Shown: in pieces, positions 14,324 to 60,195 of the stretch | Layout: every line of letters begins with the position of its first letter | How positions within the stretch are numbered: the first letter of the stretch is position 1 | Source of the DNA: Dudresnaya verticillata | Lineage: Eukaryota | Direction: 5' to 3' | NCBI GenBank assembly: GCA_977862235.1 | Contig: OZ374559.1 | Coordinates: forward strand, 2,108,001-2,172,000 | DNA: 64,000 nucleotides | Position numbers and translations under genes: made by a program | The notes under the pieces: generated by a model | Databases searched by the model: none | Told to the model about the DNA's origin: nothing | Seen by the model: only the letters and a program-made list of their open reading frames with translations

Positions 14324-14750
14324 TGAAAAGGAAATGTTGCCTTTATTGTAAAGACGCACTTCTTTCAGAGATGAGTAATGCTAGGAAAGTGCCGTATGGG
14401 CAAAGTGTGCAAAGGTCTACATGACCAGAAAGGACGGTAACTTGAATGGTGAAAGCCAGAAGAAGAATGAAATGGGTGTAGGTGGGCGGGAGAAAGGACG
14501 GAACTTGTCTGATTTTGGCAGGGGCTGATACTCGAGGCGTCTATATATACGCTTAGAATACTACTATAGTGTTGACGTAGAGCACTGCCAGGGTTGAGCT
14601 AGTTCAATCGATCCGATAGGCTTATCGGATGCTATCCTCCGATGTGTAACAAAGTACAATCTGAATATCGTCGATATTTGCACAGGTGGATCCTTTGTAG
14701 GACGCTCGGTAGGACTCTCTATTCCCCAGAGTACCTTTTCATTCCGATAC
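14324..14750 (-). mobile_element. Isolated B+A terminus of the YR retrotransposon family at 26086-30559
   Basis: Near-identical to 26085-26511. It is inserted at TGAAAA of the tandem unit and fused to LINE sequence at 14750. Confidence 0.92.
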
Positions 14751-15460
14751 GTTGGCGCAGGGACGGAGTGGAGAAGCGTGGTCGGAGGGTGTCGACGATG
14801 GGTGCGTGGTCACTGGCCCCGTCCCAGGTACCTTCGGCGACGTGGGGTTGTGCAAGGGGATCGCAGTTGGCGACGCACAAGTCGATGGTGCTTGAACCAC
14901 CGCTGCCATTGCCACTGTGGAAGGTTGGTACAGGGGGGGCGGAGGTTGTGAACGGGTTCCGAGAGCACCATGACGCAAGGGTTTGGCCGCGGGGGTTGCA
15001 TGCTGAGCACCAAGACGGATGTCGTGCGTTGAAGTCCCCCATCAGAAGCGTGGGGCATGAAGACCGAGACTTGATTTGCTCAAGTACGTTGGTAAGAGTG
15101 GGTTTATCAGCGCGGGGGCTGATGTAAACCCCGACGATATCTCCATAGGCCGGAAGATGGATACACAGCAACTGGTATAGCGTTGGGTGGAGCGGTGGCT
15201 GTGGCGTGAGGGTGTATCGGAGCGAAGCGTGCAGCTCCGGGCGAGTGATCATTGCTATGCCCACAAGCCATGGGCCGCGGGCAGTAGCCCTTATCGCCGG
15301 TAGCTCAAACGTGGGGTGAGGGAGGGAGGGGGTGCAAAGGGGAGGAACATGCGTTTCGGTGGGGATCAGCACGCCGAGGTTTAAAGTCGTTAATAGATCC
15401 ATGATCCGGCAAGGTAGATGCGAACCCTGCAACATTCCATGTTCCAGAGATCATTCAAGG
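14751..15460 (-). pseudogene. LINE ORF2 apurinic/apyrimidinic-like endonuclease (APE) domain, frameshifted and truncated
   Basis: TWNVAG (about 15445, alternate frame), TETH, GVYISP, LMGDFNARHPSW, TIDL and SDHAPI motifs. Confidence 0.9.
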
Positions 15461-23179: not shown

Positions 23180-24870
23180 CTTGTGCCAATCTGGAATGTG
23201 ATGTTTGATTTTAATGGTTGTTTAGGGTGGTCTTGTGCGGGTGACGATGGCCCATGGGCAAGCACACCGGCAAGCTACAGTTGCTAAGGTTATTCTTGAT
23301 GAAATCCATTAAAAGTATCCTATCACCGGTAAAGGGGTGGAGCTATCCTTCGGAAAGGGATCAGTTACGTGGGGACCGACTGAGTTGTGGGTGGGAAGTA
23401 GACAGGGGAAACGCGTGGCTGCAGGCGTTCCGGATAGATGAGATTGTGTCGGAGATGGCGTAGAGATCAGCGGCGAGTGGTTCTGGGAGCGACAGGGCTT
23501 GGAGAGATTGGGCGAGGGGTCGAACTTCCTCGCGGGCAATTGGGCAGGGCAGCGGAATAGGGAACGTCCCCAGGTGCCAACGGATTGCTAGTTTCTTGTC
23601 TCTGTGGTCTGGTAGCTCCGGGGCTGGTGGTAATCGATGCGAGCTGTACACCGGGGCAGGACGTCGACCAGATACCGCCGCACGCCATTCCTGTAGCAGC
23701 AAGTCGCGGAGTTCTCGCCGCGTTCGGGATTGTTGGGATGTGTAGCCACAGCATGCATCCCAGAAAGCAATACGCGGTGTGGCCTGGAGAGCAGAAAGCG
23801 TTCTTTGGGCGTGCCAGGAGGCAGGAAGCGCTGCTAAGCCGGTGAGACGTTGTAGCGCAGCGCAGAAGCTCCGTTGCACGATCTTCTGGCGAAGGAGAGG
23901 AGGTTCGAGGCGGAAGATGGCTCTGAGCTTCCGCAAGCGTTGGACAGACATTGTAGACGACCTCTGGGAGATTAGAAGGCGGAAGAAAGTTGTGTCCAAG
24001 CTGTCAATCTCGCGGCATACGGCTGGGGTGTATCGGGTAATGGCACAGCCGTGTTCGTAGACGGGGCGAACAAATATATGGTAGATATAACGAGCAGCGT
24101 GTGCGGGCATCTTGGAGGAGATGTGGCCTAATGAGACAAGTGTTCCAAGTTGGCGCTTCGCAGCAGCTATGCGTTGTAGGGTCGCTGAGTCCAAAGCCCC
24201 CTCCGGCGAGATCTGGATGCCAAGATAGCGCGCGTCGCATGTGACGTCGATTGGTTGGCCATCAATGAGGAATGTGGTTGAGCTAGGGCGTGTGCGATGT
24301 CGTTTCGGGAGGAGGATGGCACACTTGGGGGCAGACCATTGCATTCCATTCTGTTCGGCCCATGCTTGGCATACGTTAAGCGCAGCGCGCAGCTTTGCCG
24401 GGTTGCCAACATGGAGAATACAGTCATCGGCAAATAGGCGGCGCGGCGGGTTGTCGTCGGGGGACCCGAGTGCACTGCAGAGGTCGTAGGCCAGGGAATC
24501 GATGAAGAGGTTGAAGAGGATTGGACTTAGTGGGGATGCCTGTATCACGCCGCGTCGTACTTCTGCACTCTCGTTACTTGCATCACCTGCCGGGCGGATT
24601 TGTATTGCCACGAGGGTGTTGGCGATCATGGCAGTCAAATGCGGTGGCAGCCGCTCTTCACAGCATGCGAGTAGCTTATGTCTGTCTACTCGGGCATATG
24701 CGCTCTTCAGGTCCAGTGCACCAATGTAATCATCTCCAGCAGCGCTTGCTGCAAGCGTGAGTACAGCAGCCGTATCTGACCGCAGAAGGGGTTGGAACCC
24801 AAGCTGCATCCGGTGCGGGGCGAAAACTGCTTCCGCCTCGTACGCAATAGCTCGCTCAATGACTTTCCGA
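23180..24870 (-). mobile_element. 5'-truncated LINE with reverse transcriptase domain
   Basis: QLGFQP, LDLKSAYARV, GVIQASPLSPILFNLFID, LFADD, RYLGI and RWHLGTFPIP. The 3' stem-loop is at 23220-23267. Confidence 0.93.
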
Positions 24871-24879
24871 ATGTGCAGA

Positions 24880-25784
24880 AATTGCTTTCGGCTCTTTCGT
24901 TTTTTGGCATATGCATCTTCTTCTACCCGCGTGCAACCCGACATATGGCTCACCATGCTCAAACTTAGACTGGGTGTGGTGATCTTCCGTGGTGATCGCC
25001 CTTGTCCTGCTTGTCTCCATGGCACATCCGCTGAAGTTCCACTCCTTGATATCTTTGGACACCATGCCACAATCTGTCGATCGGGAACTGGCAGCATTCG
25101 CCGCCATGATACCCTCCGAAATCAACTTGGGGCTTTCTTTCGTAATACTGCTCGGAACCATGGCGTTACTGTTCAGCTTGAACGCAACTTTTCCTACCTA
25201 GAGGAGACTGGGGATTCCCGAGTTGTGGCGTCTTCTGCACGCACTGCTTCAGAAAGGCGTCGCGATGCCCGTCAATTACAACGTACTGAAGACCGTTTCG
25301 AAGAAGACCGACGTGTCCATCTTCGTATGGATCTCTATGTTGATGACCCTGCGTTTGCTCCCCTCCCGCAAGCATTTGACGTCTCCGTGGTGACACCACA
25401 CCATCCAACTACACTGTCCAAAACGCCTCGCTCTCAACATCAAGCTATTCACCGCCGCGAGCAAGCTAAAGCCCGTCATTATCGTCGCTTATGTTCTACC
25501 AACCGGATAGAACTCCATCCTATGGTGATGGACATCTATGGTGCCATTGGTTCTGGGTTCGATCGAGGCGCTCAGGGCGTGGCGAATTTCCTAGCTGCTA
25601 TGAAGGGCACTTCGCCGATCTCTGAGAAAATATCTCTTCTCACCCACCTCACCTCTCTTGTACTTCAATCTGTCGCGGTGGCTGTTAACCGCCGTTTACT
25701 CTTCGACCGTCGCCTTTCAGATGAGTTTTAGATAAGCCCCCTTACGGGGCTGTAGTCTTTCCTATGCATAAAGGTCTCCATCTC
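24880..25784 (+). mobile_element. CRE-like non-LTR 3' portion (CCHC + REL endonuclease)
   Basis: LKLRLG...CPAC...FGHHATIC...IRRHD, MDLYVDD...FDVSVV, KARHYRRLC and PMVMDIYG. Stop at 25731, hairpin at 25735-25751, then an ATAAAGGTCTC tail. Confidence 0.9.
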
Positions 25785-37016: not shown

Positions 37017-38026
37017 ATGCACGTATTGACACGCCCCCTTGTACTATCTGGCCTGCTTCTCATTTGTGCGGTCATGTGCGCACATGGCGGAAGTGTCTGC
37101 ACTGGCACTCAAGGGGGTTCAGACTACATGTGCGTCGACTGGTCCTTCGGCTCAGAGCTGATGTCACTAGCGCAGTACACGTACAAGCAACATTCTGGAG
37201 ATGACGTCTTCTTCGGTGTCGGCTCTTACGGGGCGCAATGGAACTACAACATCGGAAAATGTTACAAGTTCTACCTCAGCCCTGCGACGAAGCCAATTAT
37301 TGCTCAGGTGACAAACTACGGTGCCGACATTAACCAAAACCAGTTTGACATGGTATGGAACGCCTCATGATCAACAAAGAAATCTCGTTATACAAGAGGT
37401 ATTCCCCCACAGCACATACAGAAATACTGACTCCGTTTTCCTCGTTATTGACAATTGTCCTAATTCGTATATACAAGCAAATGGGTGGCGGCGGCTTTGG
37501 TGTCTGGAATGCATGTGCAGGGCCTACGGATAAGACTGCTAGCAATTCTCATCCGTGCAACACCAACCATCTTCTTAATACTCCGGTCTGGCCGCAGTTC
37601 AACAGTGCCAAATCGCAGTGGGGTAATCGGTGTGGTGGGCAGATTTGGCGATCTGGATGTGCATGGCTTCCAAAATGGCCCGCAGGACTTTCCTATACTC
37701 CAAAACCTTCAGGAAGCTCCTCAAATGAGCCTGATCTTGTGCAGCTTTGTCAGCGCTCATACGATTGGGGGGCTCGAATTCAGAATGGGAACAAGCAGAT
37801 CACCCATGGGCAACGCGTACCTTGCCCAACACCGTTGATCGAGATCACCAATTTGAAGCGCTGGGATGATCATCATGGTGGTAGTATGTCTTCTGGGTAT
37901 CTCACCAGTACAATGGATTGTTGCGCACCAGCTTCTGCATACCCCAGCGCTACAAACGGAAACAATTTGATTCCCGGGAAAAACAAGATTACCCCATGCA
38001 AGAGAGATGGATACACTCGGGTCTAG
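37017..38026 (+). CDS. Secreted GH45-family endoglucanase-like protein, apparently circularly permuted; join(37017..37352,37478..38026), 294 aa
   Basis: Signal peptide, then YMC, GKCYKF, IIAQVTNYGADINQNQFDM|QMGGGGFG, WGNRCGG, RVPCP..LIEITNLKRWDD and C-terminal TSTMDCCAP. A 125-nt GTATGG...AAG intron restores the frame and the motif. Confidence 0.88.
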
Positions 38027-39170: not shown

Positions 39171-40793
39171 ATGAAGTCGAGCAATTCGAGTAAGTTTCCC
39201 CATCCGCTCCACTCCGTTCTGCTCTTCTTCCTCTTCGCCTACCTAGTACGGGTCTTCTGCACGCTCTCTACCTACGGGATGGAATCCACAACAGCAGTTC
39301 TAAATGAGCTCTCGGCCCGCCCAGCAAAGTTGCATCCGGCACGCGATCTGCATTCATCGGGTCCATTGCGCACCCCAGCACCGCTCTCCCGTCTGCTTCC
39401 ATTAAGGCGCCCCTCAACGCCACGTCCACCTCGGGATTGGAAGCGTCCACACGTGCTTGCAGCTCATGTGACGTTGCACGCGAATTCCTCTCGTACGCTA
39501 ACGCTCTTCACCGCAGGGATCCTACTCAACTACCTCGAGCGAACGTTCCGAGCTGTTGGGTGCTTAGTCGGGACACGCACCTACCCAGCAGTCTTCGCCT
39601 TCCACGAGAAGGTTGTATGCAATCTGCCTCCGGATGTCGCTCATTTGCCGGGCGAACGCGTCTCCGTCGTGGTCGCACTGGACGAACGCCTACAGGTCGC
39701 CATGTCGAGACCGCAGAAAATCCATGGCTACATTTTCGAGATACGCGACGGGGATGTGTTTGCCATTACCAAGGAAGTTCAGATTGCTAACAGCGTGGAG
39801 CAGATAGCGTGGAGCAACGGATCTTCGCTAGTAGCGGGGATTAGCTCTGATATTTCTTGGGGTGAGAATCTGGTAGACGAGGAGCCACAGAATGGTACTC
39901 TGAGGTATGAGCTATGTATGGTAACTGTGATGAAGCAATACCCACATCTACTACCAGAGTGGATTGCATACTACCGGAGAATGGGTGTGGATCGTTTCTA
40001 CATCTACGACAATGATGCTGTCCATGACCTGACGAGATACCAAAGCCCATTTGTCGAGGTGGTGTACTGGCCACATGCGAGGTCGCAGACGCAGGCATTC
40101 ACGCACTTTTTAGTGGCCGGTGCATCACGCTGCAAGTATGTGGGGTTTTTCGATGCCGATGAGTTCGTACATATTGGGAACGCAGAGCCGTACGCTATGA
40201 AGAGATATCTTCTACTACGTGCGTTGCAGGGTTTCAACCAGATCACATTTTTATTCTTGACGATGCATAACAATGGATACATCCGTACACCTAAGGGGAG
40301 TCTACCAGAGCTGTATACGAAACGGAAGAAAGAGGAGAAGAGGGACATTGGAAAATCTGTAGTGGATCTAGACGCGGGGTGGGATTACCAGACCATCCAT
40401 ACGACGGTTGGCGGCAAGAATCGAAACTACTACAACGGGACGACAGAGTTAGATCCAAAAGAGATCAACAGTAACGCCATGCTAGTCCATTTCACGGAAC
40501 GTAGCTGGGAGGAGTATGTGGCGAAGCAGCAGGTGGGTGGGGCATCTGTACTGACCAAACAGCCTGCAAGCGACAATCTTGAGATGAACAAGCCGAAGGA
40601 TTGGTACATGAAGACGCCTACCGTCGAGTGGCTGACATTCCGGGACTATTGGAGAAAGATCATGAAGCAAAAGGATGTTGGAGGGTCCGTTCTAACTTGG
40701 AAGACCGAACATGGATTGACTTGCAGCCACATGTTCTGCTCTTTCTGCAGAAGCCCCAAGTGGTTTGGAGTCGCGAGTTGTTACGAAGTATAG
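39171..40793 (+). CDS. Glycosyltransferase family 92 (DUF23)-like type II membrane protein, 540 aa
   Basis: N-terminal TM anchor and Pro-rich stem, ELCMVTVMK...LPEWIAYYRRMGVDRFYIYDN, DxD motif FFDADEF, GKSVV and LVHF..RSWEEY. Confidence 0.88.
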   Translation: MKSSNSSKFPHPLHSVLLFFLFAYLVRVFCTLSTYGMESTTAVLNELSARPAKLHPARDLHSSGPLRTPAPLSRLLPLRRPSTPRPPRDWKRPHVLAAHVTLHANSSRTLTLFTAGILLNYLERTFRAVGCLVGTRTYPAVFAFHEKVVCNLPPDVAHLPGERVSVVVALDERLQVAMSRPQKIHGYIFEIRDGDVFAITKEVQIANSVEQIAWSNGSSLVAGISSDISWGENLVDEEPQNGTLRYELCMVTVMKQYPHLLPEWIAYYRRMGVDRFYIYDNDAVHDLTRYQSPFVEVVYWPHARSQTQAFTHFLVAGASRCKYVGFFDADEFVHIGNAEPYAMKRYLLLRALQGFNQITFLFLTMHNNGYIRTPKGSLPELYTKRKKEEKRDIGKSVVDLDAGWDYQTIHTTVGGKNRNYYNGTTELDPKEINSNAMLVHFTERSWEEYVAKQQVGGASVLTKQPASDNLEMNKPKDWYMKTPTVEWLTFRDYWRKIMKQKDVGGSVLTWKTEHGLTCSHMFCSFCRSPKWFGVASCYEV

Positions 40794-55680: not shown

Positions 55681-57340
55681 AGAAGTGATGTTGTTCTTTA
55701 ATTGTGGTTTATAGTGGTCCTACGCGGGCAGCTTAGGCCCATGTGCAGGCGCACTTGAGGGTCCGCAAAAAAAGGGGGCTCGTGGACTTATGTATGTATG
55801 TCTTGTTGCGTGCTATGGGACTATGGGCTATCTTTCACGAGGGCACATTATGGCGGTGGGGGACGGGGGGTGGATGATCTTGTGCGCATAGTCGGCGGAT
55901 TTTGTCAATGGCGGTGGAGATAGCGGTAAGGTCTGAGGGGCTGTTAGCGGGGTGTGACAATTTTTGAAGGACTGCGGCTTGTTCACGAAGTTCTGAACGT
56001 GTGACTGCGCAAGAGGGTGGAATTGGGAAGGTGCCAAGATGCCACCGAACCGCAAGCTTACGGTCGCGGTGGTTAGAAAGCCTGAGCGCGGGGGGTAGGG
56101 ACGATGTGTTTTGGACCGGCGCAGACCGCCGGCCTGCGACGGCCGACTTCCATGCGGCAAGGATCCGCGCCTGGATGACAGGATGTGGCGTGGGTGTTAG
56201 GGTTTGTTCCATCTCCGGAAGACTCCGTAAGGCACGCATAGTTTCCTTGGCATGCCACGCTGATGGAAGATGGCTTCTGGAGAGTTTGGAGAGTGCAGTG
56301 ATCCACTTGGTTTGTATTGCTGCTTGTCTGAGCAACGGGGGAGGGAATCTGAATAATGGTCGGAGTCTGGCGATTCTCCGCGTTGACAGTCGGGACGACT
56401 GCTGCGCAATACAGATGCGGACGAATTGGGAGTCTAGTTGATCGATTGAACTGAGGATCGGAGGGTCGAAAGGTACGAGGGCAATACAGTGCTCATAGAC
56501 TGGGCGGACAAAGGAGTTGTACACGAATTGGGCTGCATGGGCGGGCATGGATGATGACAGGGATCCAGTGTGCACCAGTGACGTTACCATAGCTCGCGCT
56601 GCAGTTAGCCTTTGCAGGGTTATTTTGTTTCCCACTCCGGTTGCTGAGATGTCAACGCCGAGGTACCGCGTTGATTGTTGATGCGGTATCTGTATCTTAT
56701 CAATGTGGAACAAGGATGTCATCGCCCTTCCCCTGTGTCGTGTGGGTAGTATGATCGAGCATTTGGGCACCGACCACTGCATTCCGAATGAATTGGCCCA
56801 TTCATCACACACAGCAAGGGCAAGTCGGGGCTCAGTTGGGGATGACACATGCAGGAGACAGTCATCCGCGAAGAGGCGGCCCGGCAGGTTTGCATCCGAT
56901 CTGTTGAGTTGGGTGCAGAATCTGTACGCGAGGACGTCTATGAAGAGGTTGAACAGTATTGGGCTTAAGGGTGAGCCCTGTACCACGCCCGTACGGATCT
57001 CGATGTAGGTACCAGTAGCGTCCCCGACCGTTCTTATACGTAACGGTCCGAGCAGCGTGGTGATCATCGCAATTAGATGGGGGTAGCCGATCCGCGCAAA
57101 GATTCAGGAGCTTCGTCCTATCGACCCGGTCATAGGCGCTTTTGAGGTCTAAGACTGCTGTGTAGTCGTCTCCCGAGCGTTGGGCCGCTATTGCCATTGC
57201 CACTGCCATTTCCGTCCGGTTGTTTGGCGAAGTTCCTGCTGCCCTTATTCGTCGATAAGCTCTTGCCCTTCGGCGGCGTAATGGGTCCAAATTTGGGGGG
57301 CAGTGTGGCTTGTTAGTTCTGGCTGAGTGGGAGGGCAGCA
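55681..57340 (-). mobile_element. 5'-truncated LINE RT (frameshifted)
   Basis: VLDLKSAYDRVDR, GVVQGSPLSPILFNLFID, LFADD, RYLGV and RWHLGTFPIP. The stem-loop is at 55707-55754. Confidence 0.93.
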
Positions 57341-58199: not shown

Positions 58200-60195
58200 C
58201 CTCGCACAGCACCTCCTCCCCGCATGCCCTATCAAATTTCACCTGCGCCTGAAGCTCACCACGTTCACGGATCACATCCGTAATACCACTGTAACACCTA
58301 GCACCCCCTCCCCACAGCCGTTCGCTGTGCCACCCACTTTCAAGCACAGCCTTTTCAAGGCTATTAACGACGCAAAACCTGGAAAACCTGTTGGCGTGGA
58401 CAACGTACGCGTGGAAATGCTGAAGCTGACGCCTAAGCTGGCGGCCGCGCTCCTCACGGACGTTTGGCGACTTTGCGGCATGTACAGTATCCTTCCTGCC
58501 GAATGGCGAAATGGATTGCTCATTCCCCTTTACAAGCGCGGCCCCGAAACGAGCCCGCAAGCTACCGCCCTATCTGCCTTTTATCGCATCTCCGGAAGCT
58601 CATTGAGCGTGCAATTGCCATTATGATAGGGAAGCACTTCACGTCTCATCCCATGCAGCTTGGCTTCCAGGCTGGGCTCGGTACCGATATGGCTCTGGTA
58701 CATGCGCAAGATTCTATACAGAACAACGACGATTACATCGCTGTTCTTGACCTTAATAGCGCGTACGACGGAGTGGATCGTAATAAGCTGTTAACCCTCT
58801 GCCATGCACTGCTACCAACAGCCATCGCTGCGATGATTAGCTGTACACTCGGCCCATTGCAAGTTTCAACGGCCAGCGACGCGACAAGACATACCGCTAT
58901 GGTCCGCAATGGCGTCATACAGGGCTCCGCGCTCAGTTGCGAGCTGTTCAACTTGTATATCGATCCACTCGCAGTGGCAATTTGTCATGAACTCCGACGC
59001 GGCCCGCAGAAGCTACCGGGAAGGCTTCTGGCCGACGATTGCCTCCTCCATGTGGACTCAGTCGCCTCCCTTCGCGCCGCGCTACGCGTCTGCGGTAATT
59101 GGGCCAGCGATAACAACATGGTCTGGTACTCCACGAAGTGCTTCATTCTTCTACCGACTCGCCATGGCCGCCGCCCTACGTCTGCAAGACTGCAGCGTAA
59201 TGGAGAGGATTTAATTGTAACGGATTCCGCGACCTACCTTGGAGCTGAAATCACGACCACGGGAATTGGCTCCGCCTCGACTGTCGCTCGTACCCGGAAG
59301 ACAAAGAGGCTTCTGGGCAACCTCAAGCGTCTCCGCCACGTATCCTCTTCGATGCCAGTAGCCGCCTCCAGGTCGATGTTTCGCTTGTTCTTGCGACCCG
59401 TCTACGAGTATGCCCTCGCCGTCTCTCCACTCGACGCCCTCGCCCTACAACACATCGGGGACGCTGAATCTTGCTAACTCCGCACTGCCATAGGGCAACG
59501 GTCCTAGTCCATGCCGCGTCGTCGTTTATCGAAGCTGCGTGCCCTGTTCAGCATCATCCACCCCGCCGACAGACGGTCCGATCTACAGAGAATGTTGGTA
59601 CTGCGCCTACGCCGGCTCTCATCTTCCCGCTCCCCTAAGCTCTCCTGGGCTGCCCGCACGACCCTAGATGCCCTCTCGCGCTCGCCTGACCACCCGCTTC
59701 GTAGCGCCGTTGCCTGCCCCAAGTCCGCAGCTGCACGGCACGCCCTGCATCTGCTGCGCTGGCGCATTTACCTCGAAGGGCGACGACCTGCTCCTGTTTA
59801 TACGTCTGACCGCCTTGCTCCCACTCTGGAACTACCTGTGTCCGCTCACCGCCATCTCGCAGTCCGCTGGCATCTGGGTACATTCCCGATCCCACCCCCC
59901 GATCCTGCTCTCGCCGCACGCGTCCGAATCGCTTCCACAACACTGGCACTTCTGGGCCAGCCTGCCCCCACCTCGGCCACGCGACGTGACGTCTCCCAGA
60001 GCATTCAAGACATTCGCCGCCGTTGGCTTTCAACGCAGTCAGCCTCCCGACTCCGCCCCTTCAACCCAATAGCACGCATTGAAGATATACAGTCGTTGTT
60101 CCTCCTTCCCATGCGATAGTGTGCGGTCTCATAGGCCTTTTGTTGCCGATGCCGGTGCACTCAAAACCGTCCTATGAAGTTTAATATCACATCCT
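58200..60195 (+). mobile_element. LINE RT pseudogene with 3' end
   Basis: KPVGVDNV..EMLK, IPLYKRG, SYRPICLL, QLGFQ, LDLNSAYD, GVIQGSALS, LLADD, TYLG and RWHLGTFPIP. The stem-loop is at 60119-60167. Confidence 0.93.

Follow-up and report, generated by a model that had tools for sequence, protein, structure and literature searches.

The well-studied and industrially used cellulases of family GH45 include, in the 64,000-nt stretch of Dudresnaya verticillata DNA analysed here (the window), a two-exon gene that raises the question of whether a member of this family can carry its catalytic segments in rearranged order and still be an enzyme. The original prediction was that of a natural circular permutant, with the canonical N-terminus transferred to the C-terminal end. 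We conclude that the gene almost certainly does encode a naturally circularly permuted GH45 protein with both catalytic aspartates kept, a conclusion supported by a profile made from the tail only, by the fold of an orthologue with 70% identity, by the co-occurrence of cysteines in tail and core, and by the same order in well over 100 relatives.

Gene structure and order of the motifs

The gene lies on the + strand, and its exons (37017-37352 and 37478-38026) join to give a 294-aa product, as originally modelled:

37017..37352, + strand: exon 1, 336 nt, residues 1-112; signal-like N-terminus, then canonical GH45 positions ~44-122 including the acid motif
37017..37088, + strand: predicted signal peptide, ~residues 1-24, from hydrophobicity, with a putative cleavage site
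37353..37477, + strand: intron, 125 nt, GT-AG, phase 0, GTATGG...CTAAT...AAG
37460, + strand: branch-point-like CTAAT inside intron 37353-37477
37478..38026, + strand: exon 2, 549 nt with TAG stop, residues 113-294

Among the four AGs at 37400-37520, only the acceptor at 37477 keeps the frame, and the annotated Chondrus protein runs unbroken across the exon junction. By tblastn, exon 1 is 69% identical to residues 25-125 of the Chondrus orthologue P0001, and exon 2 is 70% identical to its residues 114-295. When 14 fragments of relatives were examined, P0014, P0024 and P0025 (calls on raw contigs) were found to break after QFDM, as the gene at 37017-38026 does, and P0002, P0004, P0007, P0008, P0012 and P0016 to begin just past that break point; P0082 breaks later, so the intron site is common to some relatives and not to all. 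The predicted 37352/37478 splice is thus placed by homology with relatives. The only hydrophobic stretch is at the N-terminus, where KD11 peaks at 2.84 at residue 9, and it stands directly before Cys28.

An intron-free ORF of 540 aa (39171-40793, +), which starts approximately 1.1 kb past the 3' end of the GH45 gene and has the same orientation, contains a GT92/GT2-like glycosyltransferase domain (PF01697, E 1.5e-12; PF13704, E 1.3e-11). Elsewhere the window holds four retroelement ORFs, one endonuclease and three reverse-transcriptase, at 14722-15450 (-), 23364-25121 (-), 55838-57103 (-) and 58437-59474 (+), and it is rich in GC at 14-30 kb and 54-60 kb. Further ORFs on the - strand, at 26.7-30.2 kb, resemble another retroelement by eye and have no Pfam match.

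Every motif quoted in the original prediction is at its place in the 294-aa protein: YMC starts at residue 37, QFDMQMGGGG at 109, RVPCP at 225 and LKRWDD at 238, followed by HHGGSMSSG at 244, TSTMDCC at 255 and ITPCKRDG at 283. The acid motif is mid-chain and the base motif falls within the last 43 residues, so that the base lies ~145 residues C-terminal to the acid, whereas in canonical bacterial genes it comes 101-125 residues before it. The pattern T...DCC.P arose by chance in 9 of 100,000 shuffles of the protein. The corresponding positions in the window are:

37326..37328, + strand: Asp104, equivalent of the assisting Asp114; D in 72/73 aligned sequences with a residue there
37347..37349, + strand: Asp111 in QFD, equivalent of the catalytic acid Asp121 by alignment to PDB GH45 chains; 73/73
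37871..37894, + strand: linker HHGGSMSS, 8 residues, between the DD motif that ends canonical chains and the strand that is N-terminal in them
37895..38023, + strand: relocated canonical N-terminus, residues 252-294 = canonical ~3-39, by tail profile and L086 alignment
37916..37918, + strand: Asp259 in TSTMDCC, equivalent of the catalytic base Asp10 by the tail profile; 81/81 in an alignment of 82 rows, 56 of which were fetched by a pattern containing the base Asp

The two Pfam matches in swapped order that had been expected were not obtained with the family model itself. PF02015, which has a gathering cut-off of 27 bits, matched exon 1 weakly (14.6 bits, E 0.031, model positions 47-131), and exon 2 alone and the tail alone had no Pfam match; phmmer with exon 2 gave 0 matches in the PDB. 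Six full-length relatives each had a single PF02015 match starting at model position 45-70, scoring above the cut-off in Chondrus (28.0), P0003 (32), Laminaria (33) and Ascophyllum (30.4), and below it in Gracilariopsis (21.2) and P0010 (24.7). The two-match pattern appeared only with profiles of the family. A profile of 6 sequences aligned C-terminal positions 253-292 weakly to residues 7-54 of solved GH45s, and with the full profile of 82 sequences 9 of 10 PDB GH45 chains were matched twice, in swapped order.

A profile of the tail only was then made from 46 sequences, the window tail and 45 of the 67 distinct locus tails. At E<=10 it returned 18 PDB sequences, comprising 10 subfamily-A GH45s and 8 antibody chains, and the top 8 matches, and 10 of the top 11, were subfamily-A N-termini at residues 6-21 (TRYWDCCKPS), with E from 0.008 to 0.43. 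All 10 solved subfamily-A sequences were recovered in this way, with Asp259 aligned to Asp10 of 2ENG/3ENG, the matches being individually weak (17-19 bits, with one antibody chain also at 18). Over its full length the tail also aligns with residues 1-33 of L086, a canonical domain of myxobacterial origin (pairwise E 5e-6), which reads CQKDGMTRV, six residues, and then SVC. Since the last residues of the window protein are CKRDGYTRV and the first of its mature part GGSVC, the opening of the chain is pinned to a loop of ~6 residues. The canonical N-terminus is therefore at the C-terminal end, as proposed, and the order of segments stands; the start proposed at the YMC segment does not, because homology to canonical GH45 begins at GSVC28, ~10 residues earlier. 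In the ESM Atlas, queried without structure search, the top matches were canonical-length fungal GH45 clusters (0.92).

Predicted fold, catalytic residues and substrate

The fold was modelled with AF2 on the Chondrus orthologue P0001 (70% identical to the window protein), using a 26-row alignment. The model had a pLDDT of 80.3 and a pTM of 0.80, with strand 253-259 inside a block of pLDDT 90, five further strands at barrel positions, and residues 18-36 below pLDDT 50. All 8 Foldseek matches with E<=0.001 were GH45 subfamily A. In VIA comparisons, residues 28-249 of the model corresponded to 48-210 of 5GLX (Z 11.4, rmsd 3.2, 157 aligned), leaving the first 47 residues of 5GLX unmatched, and the model aligned with 67-231 of 6MVJ at Z 11.0, the next unrelated row having Z 4.0. 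The model of a permuted domain from Polyangium fumosum (L119; pLDDT 81.7) has its strand at 256-262, and 8/8 of its significant Foldseek matches were likewise GH45-A. When the core (25-246) and tail (249-295) of P0001 were submitted as split chains, complex prediction without an alignment scored 0.02 and gave no answer on docking. Among 194 distinct sequences, in which independent losses are few, the equivalents of tail Cys16 and core Cys86 were both present in 77, both absent in 117 and discordant in 0. These two cysteines form a disulfide in the Humicola insolens enzyme.

We infer from the models that the tail strand docks in the double-psi barrel as its first strand. In the proposed mechanism, the canonical first ~40 residues have moved to the C-terminus of a protein that is predicted to be secreted, strand Thr255-Asp259 would dock beside the acid strand, and the six-stranded barrel would likely be rebuilt in this way. 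According to PMC5829257, Asp121 is the acid and Asp10 the base in GH45, and the two face each other across the groove of HiEGV, 11.3 A apart. Asp111 and Asp259 would act as these do in H. insolens Cel45A, the first protonating the glycosidic oxygen and the second activating water.

In the 82-row alignment the acid and base aspartates are without exception, as listed above, and Thr6 is kept in 80/81; the one exception at the assisting Asp114 position is a Glu in Chondrus P0001. Tyr8, Asp114 and Ala74 are named as crucial in PMC6509783. At Tyr8-Trp9 the window protein has Thr257-Met258, the replacement of YW by TM that had been read from the sequence, and this change may alter substrate binding. 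In counts where P and L rows partly overlap, positions 8-9 are YW or FW in 54/54 canonical sequences, and MM (139), MQ (29), TM (9) or other (3) in 180 permuted ones, with Tyr at position 8 in 1 of the 180; the residue before GGG is Pro in 54/54 canonical and Gly or Ala in 179/180 permuted sequences. The seaweed clade has in addition Cys for the Tyr of RYGG and an insert of ~20 residues with a second Cys (17 and 17 of 82 rows). The position that we take to be Ala74 appears to be Ser in the window protein.

Invariant catalytic residues across a wide clade, together with the GH6 fusion of one member (L012), argue for an active inverting glucanase, and the changes at Tyr8-Trp9, Pro, Ala74 and RYGG leave room for a shifted substrate. 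That the window protein is an active hydrolase we regard as quite probable, and that it is a secreted, active glucanase as likely; that cellulose-type beta-1,4-glucan is among its substrates is also favoured, with slightly less assurance. In the seaweed, the secreted copy, which has no CBM, would most likely remodel the host's own wall. As the best explanation of the whole, we consider it likely that the gene encodes a permuted, secreted, inverting endo-beta-1,4-glucanase that rebuilds the barrel and works on the alga's own wall glucans.

One alternative accepts the permutation, and holds that the changed -1 subsite serves mainly another wall polymer (glucomannan, mixed-linkage glucan or xylan), or that the protein loosens walls with little hydrolysis. 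The uniform loss of the YW/FW pair in favour of MM, MQ or TM, and the insert and Tyr to Cys change of the seaweed clade, are in keeping with such a shift, and beetle GH45s have moved to xyloglucan or glucomannan by small active-site changes (PMC6509783). However, the acid, base and assisting Asp are all kept, whereas subfamily C, expansins and loosenins lack the base (PMC10909974), and cellulose as substrate fits both the GH6 fusion and the occurrence of permuted members in those Myxococcota and Fibrobacterota where canonical GH45 is found too. We consider this alternative unlikely, and continue to favour a glucanase acting on wall beta-1,4-glucans.

Distribution and origin of the permuted order

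Relatives with the same order are present in other red algae, Chondrus (2) and Gracilariopsis chorda, and also in the brown algae Laminaria digitata and Ascophyllum nodosum (2, on a 712-kb contig). Protist records with this order come from Acanthoeca spectabilis, Euglypha rotunda (partial) and Durusdinium trenchii (ending at the base Asp), under transcriptome labels that may include contaminants. Permuted endoglucanases also occur in Legionella longbeachae, L. sainthelensi, L. cincinnatiensis and L. santicrucis (P0071 cluster, L170), and group with the eukaryote-rich branch of the tree; five glucanases are listed for L. longbeachae in its genome paper, the main text of which has no 'GH45' (PMC2824747). 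A metagenome scan, which selected on the tail motif and so could not return canonical forms, gave 79 related loci among 121 pattern matches, with acid and then base in one ORF in 70/79 and the base motif in a shorter ORF in 9/79.

An order-blind DNA scan for the acid motif, covering 19 of the 64 parts of the GTDB genomes, returned at least 137 loci, 56 of them too short to classify. The 81 motif matches comprised 52 canonical, 19 permuted and 10 unclassified ones (some cut off, some chance), so that the permuted order accounts for 19/71 classified bacterial GH45 genes in this sample. Bacterial permuted members are mostly from Myxococcota, and also from Chitinispirillaceae and Fibrobacterota, and of three viral contigs one is permuted (L217, a giant-virus MAG) and two are canonical (L218, L219). 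Strict protein-pattern scans for bacterial and viral members had given 18 and 11 pattern matches, none of them related, blanks that are pattern artefacts, since the looser acid-motif DNA pattern found such members. The window gene is thus one member of a widespread permuted lineage rather than a red-algal oddity, a point that the original prediction missed.

Several members differ in architecture. L012:742-3819 encodes 1025 aa with a membrane-anchor-like N-terminal stretch, a PT-repeat linker, a GH6 domain and a permuted GH45 domain. The linker that joins the old C- and N-termini in L075:936-2222 contains a Cys-rich module, found at the C-terminal end of P0020, P0065 and P0068, and so tolerates a whole domain. 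The permuted GH45 of L009, on a 46-kb contig of 26% GC, adjoins an NAD-dependent DNA ligase, a glycosyltransferase and a sulfotransferase, a gene content that suggests a giant-virus-like contig. Three sequences were called as carrying both orders (P0044, L032 and L037), of which P0044 proved to be a spurious match of a loose pattern.

Trees were built on the core common to both orders, with 62 of 234 cores retained after dereplication (41 permuted, 21 canonical). In the unrooted trees, permuted and canonical rows stood on the two sides of one branch, with support of 99/84 under LG+G4, and of 95/79, just below the star level, under a mixture model with 137 columns. Each of the two trees required one change of order, as did 99% and 94% of their bootstrap trees. 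Within a seaweed clade of red plus brown algae (100/98 and 100/99), the window protein was sister to Chondrus, and monophyly of the red algae was weak (91/65, 82/44). The brown-algal proteins P0005, P0006 and P0015 grouped with red-algal ones with full support, a grouping for which transfer, common descent or contamination would each be a possible cause.

We take the canonical order to have come first, as it is found in every solved subfamily-A chain and as several distant barrel relatives also leave their first residues unaligned to the model. From this order, a short linker would have joined the old ends, and the chain would have been opened in the loop that separates the TRV motif from the SVC motif. 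This probably happened a single time, in an ancestor common to the bacterial, protist and viral members. Being unrooted and containing no fungal or animal canonical GH45, the trees allow one origin and do not show it. Duplication followed by trimming may have been the route, and weak hints of terminal redundancy come from two members with Cys-rich leaders (L057, L009), in which the Pfam match reaches model positions 19-30, and from the many protist tails ending in QCGC, which the profile aligns to canonical QSGC.

Independent origins of the bacterial TTMQDCC type and the eukaryote/Legionella TRMMDC type would fit the large distance between these permuted subgroups on the tree, their greatly differing linker lengths, and the lower branch support and limited canonical sampling just described. 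Nevertheless, the two types have a common break point and a common Met at position 8 or 9, they carry Gly/Ala almost without exception where canonical sequences have Pro, and both trees need only the one change of order. We consider more than one origin improbable, and retain a single permutation as the more probable course. It is speculative, and we would not expect it to hold in full, that the permuted proteins form a fourth GH45 lineage, permuted once, spread among bacteria, giant viruses and several eukaryotic supergroups and equipped with a rebuilt -1 subsite, whose seaweed branch was exchanged between red and brown algae and serves in the remodelling of their walls, with something other than plain cellulose as its substrate.

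The weakest alternative, that the swapped order is an annotation artefact in which an upstream exon supplies DCC or the tail starts a truncated second GH45 domain, could draw on the single stretch seen by Pfam and on a splice placed by homology, but is very unlikely, because the only exons that tblastn with 36 relatives detects in the 64-kb window are these two, a motif search finds no DCC-type motif upstream on its + strand, and one-ORF relatives, including the 70 metagenome loci and 19 intron-free bacterial genes, have the same order and mostly end 8-19 residues past the Cys31 equivalent; the signal-like N-terminus directly before Cys28 also speaks against it, and a barrel without strand 1 would presumably be incomplete.

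Relation to known enzymes

GH45 is described as three subfamilies with one chain order, and the main text of a 2024 GH45 structure paper does not contain 'permut' (PMC10909974). No description of a permuted GH45 was found in the literature searched, including the partial texts of PMC7410926, PMC5829257, PMC6509783, PMC2824747, PMC6260743 and PMC10909974; the Chondrus genome paper, CAZypedia and subscription journals could mention one. The permuted form is a real and probably undescribed variant of GH45. Given its share of the bacterial genes sampled and its presence in seaweeds, protists and a giant virus, the lineage would be a missed branch of the family, of which standard profiles see only a part; such profiles can lead to the false conclusion that there is no catalytic base, and leave Gracilariopsis below the Pfam cut-off. 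It provides a natural test of the role of Tyr8/Trp9 and gives enzyme engineers new termini to work with; in red and brown seaweeds alike it is a candidate for wall remodelling.

The closest characterized enzymes are those of subfamily A, from H. insolens (Cel45A/EGV; 2ENG, 3ENG, 4ENG, 1HD5), T. terrestris (5GLX, 5GLY), M. albomyces (1OA7, 1L8F), N. crassa (6MVI, 6MVJ) and C. antarcticus (5H4U). The window protein resembles them in fold, as judged from the orthologue model, in its acid, base and assisting Asp, and in most core cysteines and motifs, with 21-32% identity in structural alignments. It differs in segment order, in Thr-Met for Tyr8-Trp9 and Gly for the Pro of xPGGG, in having neither Cys16/86 nor Cys87/199 nor a CBM, and in the seaweed-specific insert. 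As the base follows the acid, we file it as a permuted variant beside subfamily A and not as a plain member. Its nearest named relatives, the Chondrus crispus 'putative endoglucanase type K, GH45' proteins (CDF40071.1, CDF35191.1), are 69-70% identical over both exons, have the same order and are sister to it on the tree, a closeness that in itself points to a florideophyte red alga as the likely host; they are known from database annotation only, under names that do not mention permutation. GH45 subfamilies B and C, expansins, loosenins and barwin likewise have a double-psi beta-barrel, and match the model weakly (Z 2.7-4.0). In several of these chains the first 11-22 residues are also unaligned to the model, which fits the canonical order as ancestral, and the base Asp that subfamily C, expansins and loosenins lack is present in the window protein.

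Natural circular permutants are known in other carbohydrate-active families, namely GH70/GH77 relative to GH13, and the permuted GH16 lichenases. For CBM35/CBM6-like modules, circular permutation is indicated by a reference title in PMC7410926. These cases represent the same kind of event, in which the ends are joined and the chain is reopened with the active site kept, on other folds, and the permuted GH45 thus extends a known phenomenon.
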